A DNA stretch of 48,448 bases from Candidatus Nanosyncoccus sp. GTDB lineage: Bacteria > Patescibacteriota > Saccharimonadia > Saccharimonadales > Saccharimonadaceae. This document shows, piece after piece, positions 835-26,273 of the stretch (its first letter is position 1; every line of letters starts with the position of its first letter). The notes beneath the pieces are model-generated. The model searched no databases, was not told the origin of the DNA, and worked only from the letters and a program-made list of their open reading frames with translations. The stretch covers positions 1 to 48,448 of the forward strand of contig JAZLJU010000026.1 in assembly GCA_045618065.1 (NCBI GenBank), written 5' to 3'. A program made the position numbers and the translations under genes.

Positions 835-944
835 GAAAGTAAAAACCCTTTTGAGGGACATATGCGACGACGGGAGCATACGCAGCGAGGAGCCCCGTAA
901 CGACGGGCGCGACGAAGCGTCCCGAAAAAGCGGTTTTTGCTTTC
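835..944 (+). repeat. structured palindromic element copy E1 (intergenic)
   Basis: terminal stem gaaagtaaaaacc-cttttGAgggac / gtcccGAaaaag-c-ggtttttgctttc; core shares gggagc and gagccccgtaacgacgggcgcga with E3. Confidence 0.85.
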
Positions 945-3992: not shown

Positions 3993-4589
3993 ATGTCAAA
4001 GAAGAAGACAAATGAGGAAATGATTATAATCCTCAAGAAAAAAATAGTGGAATTAGGGCATATTCCTACTATGCTAGAAGCTGATTGCGAAAATCTTTCG
4101 CCGAGATCAGCTGTTTTTGTGAAACGATTTGGCAGTTGGAATAAAGCCATCGAAGCCACTGGCATAACATTTCCTGACGATGATAAAAATTGTTGGGATA
4201 AAAAATCCATTACAGATGGGTTAGTTCGTCTTACAAAATACGACGAGCATGTCCCTAGTAAGAAGGAAATAAATAAATGTAATTATTTACCTTCTTACGC
4301 AATAGTGATAGAAGTCTTCGGATCGATAGAGGCAGCTTTTATTGCGGCCGGCATCAAACGAAGACCCTGTACTAAATCAGAAGTGACTACAGCATTAATT
4401 AGCTACTTCGAAGAAACTGGGCAGGTCCCAACAATAGTGGATGCTCGTTGTAACAAAGCTTTACCATCCTATGCTATAACAGTAAAGCTATTCGGTGGAT
4501 GGAATAAAGCCATCGAGGCTGCCGGATTACCAGTTAACAAACCTGGTTATCCTATCAGATATTATCCAAAGAACGCAAAAAAAGGATAA
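3993..4589 (+). CDS. protein made of three homing-endonuclease-associated repeats (putative DNA-binding), no nuclease domain seen
   Basis: three units with the pattern 'PT/PS...LPS...FGSWNKAIEAAG'. Confidence 0.7.
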   Translation: MSKKKTNEEMIIILKKKIVELGHIPTMLEADCENLSPRSAVFVKRFGSWNKAIEATGITFPDDDKNCWDKKSITDGLVRLTKYDEHVPSKKEINKCNYLPSYAIVIEVFGSIEAAFIAAGIKRRPCTKSEVTTALISYFEETGQVPTIVDARCNKALPSYAITVKLFGGWNKAIEAAGLPVNKPGYPIRYYPKNAKKG

Positions 4590-5878: not shown

Positions 5879-6829
5879 TTAAAAATTTAACTCCGTTAAC
5901 TTTTCTTTTACTTCGTCTAACGCTTTTTGACCAAAACCTTTGAGTTCTTTAAGATCGGTCTCAGAAAGAGTAATTAAATCTCTTACGGTCTTAATATCAT
6001 TATTAAGAAGCGCGTTAGCCGTACGAGCCGACAAATCTAATTCTTCAATTGAAAGCATTAAACCTGGGTCGTTTTCTTCTTCATTAGCACCTGGCGCTGG
6101 ACTAGATTCGACCTTAGTACTGCCAGCAAGCGCTGTATATTGATTTACTAAAATTGCCGCAGCCTCTTCAAAGGCATCCTTCGGGGTAATAGTACCATCA
6201 GTGTCTATCGTTAAAGTCAATTGTTGCAAATTAGTATCTTGCCCGACACGAGTATTTTCTACCTTATAGCGAACTCGAAGAACTGGAGTAAATACCGCAT
6301 CGATTGCAATCATATCGCTATGTAGTCTATCTGCCGCAGCTTGTTCAATAGTCAAATAACCACGACCAGATTCCACTACGAAGTGCATCTTAAGCACATA
6401 CTTTGGATCGTCAATGTGGCAAATTACTTGATTAGGGTTTGCGATTTCAACTTCTGCTGGAAGTTTAATATCGCCAGCTACCACGCGCTTGTCGCCATCT
6501 TTTTCAGATTGCTTATCACCCTTCATCTCTAAGTCCAACTCTACTGGTGCATCTGTATGAACCTTGAAACGAATATTTTTCAAATTCAGGATCATGTCCA
6601 CCACATCTTCACGTACACCAGGAATGGAAGTAAACTCATGTGTAGCACCTTCAATTGAAAAAGCAGTAATTGCAGCACCCTTAACGCTAGAAAGCAACAC
6701 GCGTCGGAGAGAATTGCCCAAAGTGTTACCATAGCCAGGATAAAGTGGCTTAATTACAAACTCAGCACTTGTTTTGCTAAGTTCTTTCACATTATCTAAT
6801 TTTGCTTCATGAATATTTTTTGTTGTCAT
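5879..6829 (-). CDS. rpoA: RNA polymerase alpha subunit
   Basis: GYGNTLGNSLRRVLLS, HEFTSIPGVREDV, LSARTANAL. Confidence 0.98.
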   Translation of the reverse strand: MTTKNIHEAKLDNVKELSKTSAEFVIKPLYPGYGNTLGNSLRRVLLSSVKGAAITAFSIEGATHEFTSIPGVREDVVDMILNLKNIRFKVHTDAPVELDLEMKGDKQSEKDGDKRVVAGDIKLPAEVEIANPNQVICHIDDPKYVLKMHFVVESGRGYLTIEQAAADRLHSDMIAIDAVFTPVLRVRYKVENTRVGQDTNLQQLTLTIDTDGTITPKDAFEEAAAILVNQYTALAGSTKVESSPAPGANEEENDPGLMLSIEELDLSARTANALLNNDIKTVRDLITLSETDLKELKGFGQKALDEVKEKLTELNF

Positions 6830-21985: not shown

Positions 21986-22488
21986 ATTTCCATTATACCA
22001 TACATCGCAATACCAGCCGCTACTGACACGTTAAAAGATTCTTTTTGCCCACGCATCGGTATTTCTAAAAACAGATCAATTATATCATAGAGTGAATAAT
22101 CTATCCCGTGCACTTCCTCACCCAAAATCAGCACGACCTTAGATTTTAATTTATCTTTTACTTCTTTACTTCCCATTTTATAGAGCCGCGCATCATCAAT
22201 ATTATTCTCCAAGCCCACAATTTGCCACCCCTCATTTTTTAACTTTTTCACCTCTGTAATTATATCACCAGATGAATAAATTTTTAGCATATCTTCGGCT
22301 CCAAGAGCAGTCTTATGAATCTCTTTATCAAGTTTCTCACGCAAATGTGGTAATAAATTCTTATCATGCACTCTAGGTGTATAACCAGACAAAATCACTC
22401 GTTCCACTCCAAATCCTTCCGCCGTCCTAAGAATCGCCCCCACGTTATAACATGACCGTATATTATCTAACACCAAAATCATTTCCAT
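21982..22488 (-). CDS. TrmH/SpoU family RNA methyltransferase (likely start ATG 22488)
   Basis: LDNIRSCYNVGAILRTA, LGEEVHG, IPMRGQKESFNVSVAAGI. Confidence 0.9.
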   Translation of the reverse strand: MEMILVLDNIRSCYNVGAILRTAEGFGVERVILSGYTPRVHDKNLLPHLREKLDKEIHKTALGAEDMLKIYSSGDIITEVKKLKNEGWQIVGLENNIDDARLYKMGSKEVKDKLKSKVVLILGEEVHGIDYSLYDIIDLFLEIPMRGQKESFNVSVAAGIAMYGIMEI

Positions 22489-22493
22489 TACCA

Positions 22494-22518
22494 AATTATA
22501 CCAGATTATGGTATAATT
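22494..22518. promoter_or_regulatory. back-to-back extended -10 promoters for the methyltransferase gene and leuS
   Basis: aattatacca-gatta-tggtataatt perfect inverted repeat; TGGTATAAT 6-7 nt before each ATG. Confidence 0.75.
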
Positions 22519-22524
22519 GTCTCT

Positions 22525-25026
22525 ATGAAAAGATATGAGCCCTTGGCAATTGAAAAAAAATGGCAAGAAAAATGGGAAAAAACTCAGGCCTTTAAAGCGA
22601 CTGAGAATTCCGACAAACCCAAGATGTTCCTCGCCGAAATGTTCCCTTACCCATCTGGCGCCGGCTTGCACGTGGGCCATGTTCGCAACTTTACTATTGT
22701 GGATGTGCTTACTCGTTTTTATACTCAGCAAGGGCTAAATGTCTTGCGACCGTTCGGCTACGACACTTTTGGACTTCCAGCGGAAAATTATGCTATCAAA
22801 ACCGGCACCGCACCCCAAGAAGTCACTAAATCGAATATCGCCAATTTTCGCAACCAAGCCAAGCGCTTAGGCTACGCTATCGACTGGTCTCGAGAAATTA
22901 ATACTTCTGATCCGGAATATTACAAATGGACTCAGTGGTGCTTTTTACAACTTTATAAAAAAGGCTTAGCCTATCAAAAAGAATCCTATCAATGGTGGTG
23001 CCCAGTCGACCAAACAGTTTTGGCTAATGAGCAAGTCGAAAATGGCTGTTGTTGGCGCTGCGGTCACGAAGTTGAAAAGAAAAAAATGAAACAATGGTTT
23101 TTTAAAATCACCGAATACGCCGATGAATTACTCGAAGAAATTGACAACCTAGATTGGCCCGAAAAAATCAAAACTATGCAAAAAAACTGGATCGGACGCT
23201 CAGTGGGCGCTGAAATTGACTTCCCAATTGCTACTAAAGTTGTTTCTGCGAGCGTTCGCGACAACGGGAGCGAACGACGAAGCGAGCCCTATGACGATAG
23301 GCACGAGCAAGGAGGCGAGCAAAAACAACTTTATAATAATCGTAAAGTTAAAGTCTTTACCACTCGCCCAGACACCATTCTCGGCGCCACTTTCCTAGTT
23401 GTTGCCCCAGAATACCCAGCATTAGAAACCCTTCTTACCGACGATACTTACGACCAAGTTTTAGCCTATAAAGCTGCCGCTCTTAAAAAATCCGAAATCG
23501 AACGCCAAGAAAACAAAGAAAAAACCGGCGTCTTCACTGGTTCTTATGCTATCAATCCAGCTACCAAAGAAAAAATCCCTATCTGGGTAGCAGATTATGT
23601 TTTGTCTGGCTATGGTACTGGTGCAATTATGGCTGTACCTGCCATGGACGATCGCGACCGCGAATTTGCCGAAAAATTCAATTTGCCAATTATAGAAACT
23701 GAACTTGTCGACCGCGACACCTACGGAACCCCAAAAACTACTTACAAAATGCGCGACTGGCTAATTTCACGCCAACGCTATTGGGGTTGTCCAATTCCAA
23801 TCGCTTATGATAAAGATGGCAATGCTCACCCAATTCCAGAAGATCAACTCCCGGTTTTGATTCCAGAAGTTAAAGACTACAAACCAGACAATTCTGGACA
23901 TTCAGCCCTAGCTAAAGCTAAAGATTGGCTCAAAGTTAAAATCCCTGTTAAAGATCCAAAAACTGGCGAAATTCACGAAGAAGAAATGACTAGAGAAACC
24001 GATACTCTAGACGGCTACGCTTGTTCGTCTTGGTATCTCTGGCGTTACGCTTCCCCGCACGACAATAATCACGCCTGGGATCCAGAAGCTATCAAATATT
24101 GGGCACCGACCGACATTTACGTAGGCGCTGATCACGCCGTCGCTCATCTACTTTATATCCGTTTTTGGTGTAAATTCTTCGCCGATGAAGGATATTTACC
24201 TTTCCGTGAACCGGTTAAAAAATTAATCTATCATGGCTACATTAATGCGCCTGATGGTAAAAAAATGTCTAAATCTAAAGGTAACGTTATCGACCCGCTA
24301 GATGTAATCGATGAGGGATATGGCGCCGATACTCTACGCACCTACGAAATGTTCATCGGTCCAGTCGAACTCGATGCTGCCTGGAACCCTCGTTCAGTCG
24401 GCGGAGTTTATAGATTTTTGAACCGCTGTTATACGCTTTGTTTCGAGAATAAGAATAAAGATATTGATGAGGGTGTTTCTAGAGAGCTTCCGCGACCAAC
24501 GGGGAGCGGCTTGAGCGAAGTGAGCCCCGTAACGACGGGCGCGAACGAGCGTCTCTCTAAAACATCCGATTCAATATCCAATACTACAGTTATAAGAAAT
24601 AAAACCATCAAAAAAGTTACCGAGGATATCTATCGTCAAAACTTCAACACCGCTGTCGCAGCATTAATGGAATACGTCAACGAACTTTATAAAACTACAC
24701 CAGAAACCGAAGATATCATAACCTTAGCAAAATTATTAAAGCCTTTCGCTCCGCATTTGGCTTCTGAAATGCTCGAATTCTTAAATTCCAACGATGAATG
24801 GCCAAAATGGGACGAAAAATTTCTTATCTCTGATACCGTAGAAATTATCGTTCAGGTCAACGGCAAATTACGTGGCAAATTGTCTGTCTCTACCAATGAT
24901 TTAGGAAACGAAGAGAAAATCATAAATCTCGCAAAAAACGATCAAAAAATCCAAAAACACTTAACCGACAACATCAAAAAAACCATCTTTGTCAAAAAAG
25001 CTAAAATTTTAAATTTTGTAGTATAA
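22525..25026 (+). CDS. leuS: leucyl-tRNA synthetase with two in-frame palindromic insertions
   Basis: MFPYPSG..LHVGH, FTTRPDT, WLISRQRYWG, KMSKS. Confidence 0.97.
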   Translation: MKRYEPLAIEKKWQEKWEKTQAFKATENSDKPKMFLAEMFPYPSGAGLHVGHVRNFTIVDVLTRFYTQQGLNVLRPFGYDTFGLPAENYAIKTGTAPQEVTKSNIANFRNQAKRLGYAIDWSREINTSDPEYYKWTQWCFLQLYKKGLAYQKESYQWWCPVDQTVLANEQVENGCCWRCGHEVEKKKMKQWFFKITEYADELLEEIDNLDWPEKIKTMQKNWIGRSVGAEIDFPIATKVVSASVRDNGSERRSEPYDDRHEQGGEQKQLYNNRKVKVFTTRPDTILGATFLVVAPEYPALETLLTDDTYDQVLAYKAAALKKSEIERQENKEKTGVFTGSYAINPATKEKIPIWVADYVLSGYGTGAIMAVPAMDDRDREFAEKFNLPIIETELVDRDTYGTPKTTYKMRDWLISRQRYWGCPIPIAYDKDGNAHPIPEDQLPVLIPEVKDYKPDNSGHSALAKAKDWLKVKIPVKDPKTGEIHEEEMTRETDTLDGYACSSWYLWRYASPHDNNHAWDPEAIKYWAPTDIYVGADHAVAHLLYIRFWCKFFADEGYLPFREPVKKLIYHGYINAPDGKKMSKSKGNVIDPLDVIDEGYGADTLRTYEMFIGPVELDAAWNPRSVGGVYRFLNRCYTLCFENKNKDIDEGVSRELPRPTGSGLSEVSPVTTGANERLSKTSDSISNTTVIRNKTIKKVTEDIYRQNFNTAVAALMEYVNELYKTTPETEDIITLAKLLKPFAPHLASEMLEFLNSNDEWPKWDEKFLISDTVEIIVQVNGKLRGKLSVSTNDLGNEEKIINLAKNDQKIQKHLTDNIKKTIFVKKAKILNFVV
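23235..23333 (+). repeat. structured palindromic element copy E2, in frame in leuS (99 nt)
   Basis: taaagttgtttctgc / gcaaaaacaacttta terminal stem; same core architecture as E1 and E3. Confidence 0.85.
24460..24578 (+). repeat. structured palindromic element copy E3, in frame in leuS
   Basis: gatattga/tcaatatc and gggtgttt-c-tagagag/ctctcta-aaacatcc stems; gagccccgtaacgacgggcgcga identical to E1. Confidence 0.85.
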
Positions 25027-25034
25027 AAGCAAAG

Positions 25035-26273
25035 CTACTTATTTAATAAATGCTTATAAATATTAACGAACTTATCCAGGGTTTTTTCAAAATCATGTTC
25101 GTGTGCAATCTCTATAGACTTTTCGCTAAATTTTTTCTGCAAATTTTTATCTGTTAAAATTTTTATCATCGCCTCACTGATTTCTGATACATTTTTCGGC
25201 TGGCACAAATAGCCATTTTTACCACTTTCACAAACTTCCGCTACTGCACCTTTATCTACGGCGATTAAAGGTAGCCCTGTCGCTGCCGCCTCTATCAAAA
25301 CAATTCCCTGAGTCTCAATCTCCGAAGCCGTAGCAAACACATCACCCACCTTATAAAGCTCGTATAAATCTGGTGGCAAAATTCTTCCCAAAAAATGAAT
25401 ATTCTGACAAGTTTTATTTTCCTCTACCAACCTAGCCCTATCTACGCCATCACCAACCACCACGAGCTGTGCTTTCAGTCCATTTTTTTCCGCCTCTAAA
25501 AACGCGTCCGCTATCAATCCTACCTTTTTCTCTGGATCCACCCTGCCTACATATAGAACCGTCGGCAAAATTTCATCTAAACCATACTTTTTATATATTT
25601 CTTTTTTAGGTTTGCCGGGCTTAAAATTCGATAAATCTACCCCGTTAGATACCGCAGCAACTGGCACCTTAAAATCCTTCCCTTTTTTAAAAATCAAGTT
25701 ATCGATGGCTTGTTTTGTCGGCATAGTCACAAAATCACTTTTATTTTGCCTATGGTAAAAATAATCATATAAAAGTGCGTTGACTGGCTTTTGCACTACT
25801 TTAGGCATGTGCATCGGTTCAGTTAAAACTTCCGGCTGATTATGCTCAGTTGTTACTACTGGGATATTTCGTCTTTTAGCATAAGAAACCACCGACAGCC
25901 CAATCGGATCCGACACCTGTACGTGTACCACATCGGGTTTAAATTTATCTAAAATCTTTCTTATTTCATGCACTGGGAACACCGAAACTTTAAAGCCATT
26001 TTTATAGAACAAATGTGGCCAATTAATTCCCAAAAACTTTTTCTTCTCTGGTACTTTATGAATTTGATCTGGGTAAATTTTTACATTAACAGATTTCAAA
26101 AAAACAGTTTTCACCCCATCTATAACTTTTGTATAATTTTTACCTGTCTGTGATGGGCAAATCACCATAACTTCATGGCCACGCTTTGCTAATCCAACTG
26201 CCAAATTGTGCGAAAATACTGCCACCCCATTTATCATTGGATGATATACTGCTGTTGCGATTACTATTTTCAT
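25035..26273 (-). CDS. GT4 family glycosyltransferase
   Basis: YHPMINGV, YVGRVDPEK, ETQGIVLIEA. Confidence 0.9.
   Translation of the reverse strand: MKIVIATAVYHPMINGVAVFSHNLAVGLAKRGHEVMVICPSQTGKNYTKVIDGVKTVFLKSVNVKIYPDQIHKVPEKKKFLGINWPHLFYKNGFKVSVFPVHEIRKILDKFKPDVVHVQVSDPIGLSVVSYAKRRNIPVVTTEHNQPEVLTEPMHMPKVVQKPVNALLYDYFYHRQNKSDFVTMPTKQAIDNLIFKKGKDFKVPVAAVSNGVDLSNFKPGKPKKEIYKKYGLDEILPTVLYVGRVDPEKKVGLIADAFLEAEKNGLKAQLVVVGDGVDRARLVEENKTCQNIHFLGRILPPDLYELYKVGDVFATASEIETQGIVLIEAAATGLPLIAVDKGAVAEVCESGKNGYLCQPKNVSEISEAMIKILTDKNLQKKFSEKSIEIAHEHDFEKTLDKFVNIYKHLLNK

Follow-up and report, generated by a model that had tools for sequence, protein, structure and literature searches.

The window, by which we mean the whole 48,448-nucleotide stretch of DNA analysed here, belongs to a Candidatus Nanosyncoccus species, a tiny gut bacterium whose own genome assembly is 619 kb long and 96% complete. 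Its leuS gene, which encodes leucine--tRNA ligase (LeuRS), occupies positions 22525–25026 of the + strand as one open frame of 833 amino acids, and the product scores 869 bits against the TIGR00396 model (cut-off 548). The gene has a third-position G-C skew of −0.42, which places it on the C3-rich (lagging-like) strand, and a G+C content of 43%, compared with 63–64% in the cores of two hairpin elements, E2 and E3, that lie within it. A further copy, E1, is intergenic; it is found upstream of thyA at 835–944 (+), has a core at 853–925 and arms of 18–19 nt, and lies on the same strand as E2 and E3. We note that a 198-amino-acid protein made up of homing-endonuclease-associated repeats (PF18780) is encoded at 3993–4589 (+), downstream of the thyA cluster.

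E2 spans 23235–23333 (+), 99 nt that are in frame at about amino acids 238–270, and consists of a 69-nt core with GA...GA ends (23250–23318) between a 15-nt left arm (23235–23249) and a right arm (23319–23333) that pairs with it over 15 bp. The core holds two hairpins, A and B, the latter (23287–23301) being a compensated variant of the family hairpin, and E2 is 84% identical over 77 nt to a copy in argS. E3 spans 24460–24578 (+), 119 nt in frame at about amino acids 646–685, with arms at about 24460–24481 and 24558–24578 and hairpin B at 24526–24539. Both elements fold better than their shuffled counterparts (z −3.75 for E2 and −4.38 for E3; none of 200 shuffles was equally good for either). 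The peptide encoded by E2, KVVSASVRDNGSERRSEPYDDRHEQGGEQKQL, is flanked by GAEIDF and VFTTRPDT and adds about 33 residues between the strands of a beta-hairpin where the chain enters the editing (CP1) domain; that encoded by E3, DIDEGVSRELPRPTGSGLSEVSPVTTGANERLSKTSDSI, adds about 36 residues between two helices of the anticodon-binding domain. Coordinates, translation and the TIGR00396 score confirm the view of the initial annotation that both are in-frame insertions which leave the LeuRS frame open, and the translations also agree with its reading of the shared hairpin B in different frames, as EPYDDR in E2 and SPVTTG in E3.

The inserted peptides are rich in S, R, E and G, poor in aromatic residues, and match no NCBIfam model at E 5. 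Residues 241–273 of this LeuRS have no counterpart in the Thermus thermophilus enzyme (1H3N). In an AlphaFold2 model built from a 29-sequence alignment (mean pLDDT 78.7), values below 50 are confined to residues 239–270 and 648–683, and both inserts are low-confidence loops that are predicted to be unstructured. Lying in an open frame, E2 and E3 are likely translated with the rest of LeuRS. Elsewhere in the gene, the DxRD-to-RDW spacing (23640–23760) is 38 residues where its congeners have 74–77, a portion of the editing domain being absent, and about 55 residues upstream of KMSKS (24240–24270) are missing relative to T. thermophilus LeuRS.

Alignment with orthologous LeuRS proteins located empty counterparts of both sites. 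Site 1 is 14–19 residues long in empty orthologues from the genus and 49 in the window leuS, and site 2 is mostly 21–28 residues long in the former and 61 in the latter; these lengths, and the absence of copies from conserved cores, fit the earlier description of both sites as normally short variable linkers. Among distinct LeuRS proteins drawn from genomes and metagenomes, a sample biased towards query-like sequences, elements of differing subfamilies, frames and orientations occupy site 1 in 38 of 132 proteins and site 2 in 39 of 122, and in one case (L014) two elements stand in tandem. The orthologues are either empty or carry unrelated peptides in other frames or orientations, rather than all sharing one conserved homologous peptide, and these empty or differently filled sites support the proposal of in-frame insertion in a CPR lineage after the manner of the Rickettsia palindromic elements (RPEs; see below). 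In a FastTree phylogeny of 74 LeuRS proteins, which was built with the inserts cut out, excludes partial genes, duplicate genes and 21 distant loci, and has many open forks, at least 13 changes of state occurred at site 1 (16 filled) and at least 12 at site 2 (18 filled). L003 and L159 have the same site-1 insert and differ at site 2, and in L167, L249 and L030 the arms are retained with the core wholly or partly gone (arm-arm scars). In the closest species (L240, 80–83% identical) site 1 retains only a remnant of 23 residues, and E3 is represented by an orthologous copy with compensating changes. That the process creates new protein sequence, as had also been proposed, holds in a weak sense only, the peptides looking disordered and having been repeatedly gained, swapped and lost. 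The two loops are a natural experiment in the insertion tolerance of an essential enzyme, with many fillings by unrelated peptides of 25–45 residues.

The same two LeuRS loops are also filled, in L002, L007, L008, L027, L005, L022, L024 and L264, by hairpin elements without the standard hairpin B, among them a type whose short core measures about 40 nt; the family therefore extends beyond the search profile.

When 15 equal-length orthologous insert pairs, mutually non-independent, were compared, the differences per site at codon positions 1, 2 and 3 were 0.12, 0.16 and 0.19 in the inserts and 0.08, 0.04 and 0.41 in the flanks. With so slight a third-position excess, the LeuRS inserts appear to be constrained on their nucleotides and not on their peptide, in agreement with the suggestion that conservation is at the level of nucleotide structure. 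L006 and L077 have the same core sequence across about 85 nt, although they differ at flanking synonymous sites.

The genome that contains the window has 18 copies of the element, 16 found by profile and two further by pattern; three are intergenic, E1 among them, and 15 lie in open frames, namely those of leuS (two), valS (two), argS, aspS (two), miaA, a dihydrouridine synthase (contig C34), der, truB, rlmD-like genes (two), topA and an RlmKL-like methyltransferase. A profile scan of species genomes gave 132 matches at no fewer than 125 loci in other genomes, and 73 of the first 80 of these at least 125 loci are of Saccharibacteria or Ca. Nanosyncoccus origin. Open frames hold 114 of the 132 matches (one of the 132 being a low-score match outside the group). 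Of the 18 non-coding matches, 15 had homology in their flanks; in none did the two flanks match one protein, and none splits a recognisable gene. The 114 coding copies occupy five of the six frames, three of them antisense (18, 9 and 8 copies) and two sense (49 and 30); the sixth, in which TAA or TGA falls in the hairpin-B loop, has no copies, partly by construction. By a tally of cluster annotations (raw counts), 68 coding copies are in tRNA synthetases, tRNA or rRNA modifiers or translation GTPases and 15 in DNA repair or replication enzymes. A covariance model of the element captured hairpin B alone.

Of 147 near-complete genomes from the genus, 116 contain the 14-nt hairpin-B word, with 0 to 37 exact matches per genome and a reversed-pattern control near zero; the remaining 31 have no exact core match. 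From the order's other genera 248 genomes were sampled, and only seven contain the word; four of these resemble chance and three are shorter CGTC-type REPs. From this sampling the repeat family appears to be largely confined to one genus, Ca. Nanosyncoccus, which is represented by 369 species genomes and in which exact core matches reach 37 per genome. The wide occurrence, the near-zero reversed control and the diverged orthologue of E3 led us to reject an assembly artefact. In viral contigs three pattern scans gave 0, 1 and 1 matches; both of these are in G+C-rich phage genes, lack the anatomy of the element and were rejected as chance.

Several individual copies merit description. The gene aspS appears twice in the assembly (L273, C16:1-661, and L274, C14:148-2019), the two being 91.6% identical with different versions of the element at one site; the L274 version agrees with that of L273 in its left part, but its core is shortened and its right end differs, as recombination might produce. 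The two aspS copies possibly come from strain mixing in the assembly. Nested copies, with an extra small hairpin at or within hairpin A, are found in L275 (C17), L090, L345 and L036. In L269 (C1), L031, L097 and L121 the element is at the very start of miaA; L121 has no open start upstream of the conserved region other than one inside the element.

The anatomy of the family was measured on the 86 of 128 copies in which both ends could be placed. Each is a core of about 75 nt (67–80 nt in 84 of the 86) with GA...GA ends and two hairpins, set inside an inverted repeat whose arms have a median length of 22 bp and reach at least 12 bp in 81 of the 86; cross-copy controls have a median of 3 bp and reach at least 12 bp in 35 of 300. 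Arm lengths cluster at 19–26 bp (62 of 80). Copies at different sites with cores 90–100% identical (94 pairs) share their arms strongly for only about 6 nt, with a weaker A/T-tract signal at arm positions 11–13, and a recurrent extra purine, located 10–15 nt outwards along the 5' arm, accounts for 54 of the 78 bulges in left arms. At one LeuRS site the arms co-vary, with double changes in 15 of 20 outer-stem pairs across ten copies (0 of 500 shuffles did so; slid controls gave 2–7, a comparison that favours the true structure, since it was derived from the same alignment). The arms extend into codons of the host gene, where a synonymous change in one arm has its counterpart in the other among the same-site copies L006, L077 and L162; because the stems overlap host codons in several copies, they are not simply part of the insert. 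The net insertion less the core varies between −15 and +64 nt, with a median of 17 nt. No direct target duplication was found in 80 copies, the longest direct repeat of the flanks being 4.95 nt compared with 4.87 nt in controls. Among 50 copies with an empty homologue, a test for a host-derived arm gave p 0.49 for sense copies (n = 33) and p 0.044, favouring the 3' arm, for antisense copies (n = 17), and strong cases split 9 to 1 in a post-hoc count by eye; these comparisons weakly suggest that the 3' arm is host sequence. The recurrent purine and A-tract of the arms, together with third-position conservation of the core after insertion, make a purely neutral passenger inadequate as an explanation.

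The orientation of the elements follows the base skew of the chromosome. In the window rpoB, rpoA and the ribosomal-protein genes lie on the G-rich strand, and third-position skew is strong in these genomes; the G-rich strand is in general the leading one. All 18 copies of the genome under study (one of whose contigs has almost no skew) have their GA-rich strand on the C-rich strand of the chromosome, and so, elsewhere, do 75 of 82 copies in long loci, or 70 of 73 where skew exceeds 0.2; short loci follow the rule less closely (32 of 44), and it is absent from one weak-skew genome (3 of 7). It follows that copies are sense in lagging-like genes such as the window leuS and antisense in leading-like genes. 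LeuRS inserts read on the GA-strand and on the TC-strand number 46 and 2 in C3-rich genes but 14 and 13 in G3-rich genes (Fisher p 1e-5, with kin not independent), and the mixed pairs in the G3-rich genes suggest older copies carried through inversion. Arm mismatches on the GA-rich strand are G-T in 48 cases and A-C in 21, and among antisense copies in 24 and 6, so even there the excess indicates that the folding strand is not the mRNA. Orientation is set by the replication strand, not by gene direction, which argues against excision from mRNA. We note that only about 53% of the coding length of this genome is on the G3-rich strand and that the strand carrying leuS varies from species to species, which suggests that inversions are frequent in the genus.

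Mobilising enzymes were sought in 31 copy-rich and 31 copy-free genomes. A Y1/RAYT transposase is found in none of the copy-rich genomes and in two of the copy-free ones, with stops, IS110 in none of the copy-rich genomes and DUF559 in one of them, and no stand-alone small GIY-YIG gene was found. Reverse transcriptases occur in 20 of 31 copy-rich and 15 of 31 copy-free genomes (35 of 62 in all) and are of the diversity-generating (DGR) type where inspected. No mobilising enzyme was found among these Y1/RAYT, IS110, DUF559, small GIY-YIG and reverse transcriptase families. The genome of the window itself has such a DGR, on contig C38 at about 22390–24160 and C4 at 5929–6125, made up of a reverse transcriptase of 369 amino acids, a template repeat rich in AAC, and a pair of variable repeats that are 88% identical and differ almost entirely at template adenines.

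The interpretation that we consider probable is that E2 and E3 are hairpin repeats of non-coding origin that lie in frame in surface loops of LeuRS, are likely translated into disordered peptides of nearly neutral effect, and probably propagate as selfish DNA along a single-strand route tied to replication, each copy ending up within an inverted repeat specific to its site. The mobile folded form would be the GA-rich DNA single strand, corresponding to the nascent lagging strand. On or soon after insertion one arm, more likely the 3' arm, would be written as a reverse-complement copy of adjacent host sequence by fold-back or template-switch synthesis. Quasi-palindromes are corrected by template switching, and single-strand transposons prefer the lagging strand. 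The copies that survive would be in-frame, stop-free ones in tolerant loops only, and essential genes might shelter them, imprecise deletion there being lethal. The enzyme would most likely be supplied by host replication or repair functions or by a factor in trans. It is possible, but in our opinion doubtful, that this amounts to a mode of DNA mobility different from the transposition described so far, in which a folded single strand of about 75 nt is built into the nascent lagging strand and fold-back writes an inverted target copy of about 20 bp, perhaps by host replication and repair enzymes only, giving hundreds of independent peptide insertions to nucleic-acid enzymes and tRNA synthetases within one genus; such a route may be the missing mechanism of RPE-type coding palindromes.

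The elements could instead be DNA structures maintained by the host, for example lagging-strand sites bound or cut by a host protein, that are under selection and homogenised by gene conversion, the peptides being a tolerated by-product. The third-position divergence of the inserts, less than half that of the flanks, the core identity of L006 and L077 despite their differing flanks, the arms that remain paired, the recurrent bulge that is kept and the strict strand rule are all in keeping with such maintenance, but 31 of the 147 near-complete genomes of the genus lack any exact core match, counts run up to 37 in the others, and sites have been emptied, swapped or reduced to scars, so we regard it as unlikely. 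In a variant of the main reading the core inserts with short ends only, and ordinary template switching at quasi-palindromes afterwards lengthens the arms up to codons that cannot change, in which case the arms are uninformative about the chemistry of insertion. The mirrored synonymous host-codon changes and the wide range in net insertion length would be natural consequences of later growth, but copies with identical cores, and so probably young, already have full unrelated arms, and neither the clustering of arm lengths nor the recurrent position of the bulge is expected from it. We think this growth quite possible, if somewhat short of an even chance, and it is compatible with the spread of the elements as selfish DNA.

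If the hairpins were instead removed from the RNA by splicing or ribosome bypass, a LeuRS of normal length would result; the long outer stems do join both flanks in the predicted mRNA fold, and the host genes encode essential enzymes. However, 35 of the 114 coding copies are antisense, so that their mRNA is the other strand with more A-C mismatches, orientation tracks replication and not transcription, no frame-breaking or stop-frame intragenic copy was seen, copies lie in variable loops and not in conserved cores, and intergenic copies have the same anatomy. The excision from mRNA that the initial annotation had offered as an alternative is thus disfavoured, and we judge it very improbable. 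Inversion of the core between its arms, which would switch the loop peptide in a kind of intragenic phase variation, might be imagined from the inverted repeats of about 20 bp and from the presence of both orientations at the same loop in different species, but when the core is flipped in silico a stop arises in 11 of the 26 antisense copies and in 10 of the 44 sense ones, the arms differ at every site and so offer no common recombinase site, and orientation is fixed by strand; this reading is highly improbable and was rejected.

Bacterial miniature elements (MITEs) such as Correia/NEMIS, ERIC and RUP are short, non-autonomous and structured and sometimes give in-frame gene fusions, according to the available text of PMC2229807. 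The Nanosyncoccus elements differ from MITEs in having no direct target-site duplication, no TA ends, no constant terminal repeat and a high G+C content, and no constant terminal repeats shared with an autonomous IS were found (four mobiliser families and reverse transcriptases were examined). Over 22400–25100 no Rfam 15 covariance model, including those of structured RNAs and self-splicing introns, matches at E 5. The CGTC- and GTAG-tagged REPs (Di Nocera et al. 2013) are described in the accessible portion of PMC3733652 as single hairpins of 20–40 bp with a terminal tag, mostly extragenic; those within genes favour DNA-repair genes, tRNA synthetases and truB, the same gene bias being reported there for RPEs, and CGTC repeats have no dedicated transposase. 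Our elements resemble these REPs, as there described, in their bias to tRNA synthetases, DNA repair genes and truB, and are unlike them in being three-way structures of 110–120 nt, in having GAGC rather than CGTC before hairpin B and in the absence of RAYT; an alignment of 38 cores contains no invariant GTAG or CGTC tag, and GAGC precedes hairpin B. Short CGTC-type REPs of two other Saccharibacteria families, L338 (G409) and L334 (G546), share the 14-nt hairpin-B word and lie in frame in truB-like and mnmA-like genes. Such REP hairpins are a possible origin of the core. By these comparisons of sequence and structure, the family appears to be neither a tagged REP, nor a classical MITE, nor an Rfam family.

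Knowledge of coding palindromes goes back to the Rickettsia genomes, and the basic phenomenon is not new; their mechanism of spread is still open according to PMC2229807. The same paper cites the Wolbachia WPE and the Methanocaldococcus coding palindromes (Ogata 2005, Suyama 2005) as lineage-restricted, and the Nanosyncoccus family is likened to them by description alone. A literature search, weak on subscription journals and without supplements, found no report of such elements in Saccharibacteria. The RPEs (RPE-1 to RPE-10; Ogata et al. 2000, 2002) are stem-loop repeats of about 100–150 nt, both intergenic and in frame in housekeeping genes of Rickettsia (PMC2229807, PMC10969869, as far as their available text goes). 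An RPE-bearing guanylate kinase (gmk) is produced and active, a precedent for translation (PMC2229807, same portion). Like RPEs, our elements belong to the stem-loop class of about 100–150 nt (99 nt for E2 and 119 for E3), lie in frame in conserved genes as well as between genes, and occur in a reduced, host-dependent bacterium, and within the text available the mobiliser of RPEs is not known either. Unlike RPEs, which in the accessible sections have a family-wide terminal repeat (12 bp in Table 1 of PMC2229807) and a conserved encoded peptide (PMC10969869), they have arms that are private to each site beyond about 6 nt and use five frames, and about 85% of the Nanosyncoccus copies are coding, compared with nearly half of the RPEs in the same sources. 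The replication-strand rule goes unmentioned for RPEs in the available parts of PMC2229807 and PMC10969869. The RPE1 model TIGR01045 has no match in the genome of the window at E 1, a comparison of protein models rather than of DNA. Two signatures constrain the mechanism by which these elements spread: an inverted repeat specific to each site stands where a direct duplication might have been, and orientation is set by the replication strand. The elements appear to work like RPEs and, compared at the protein-model level, to form a separate family.
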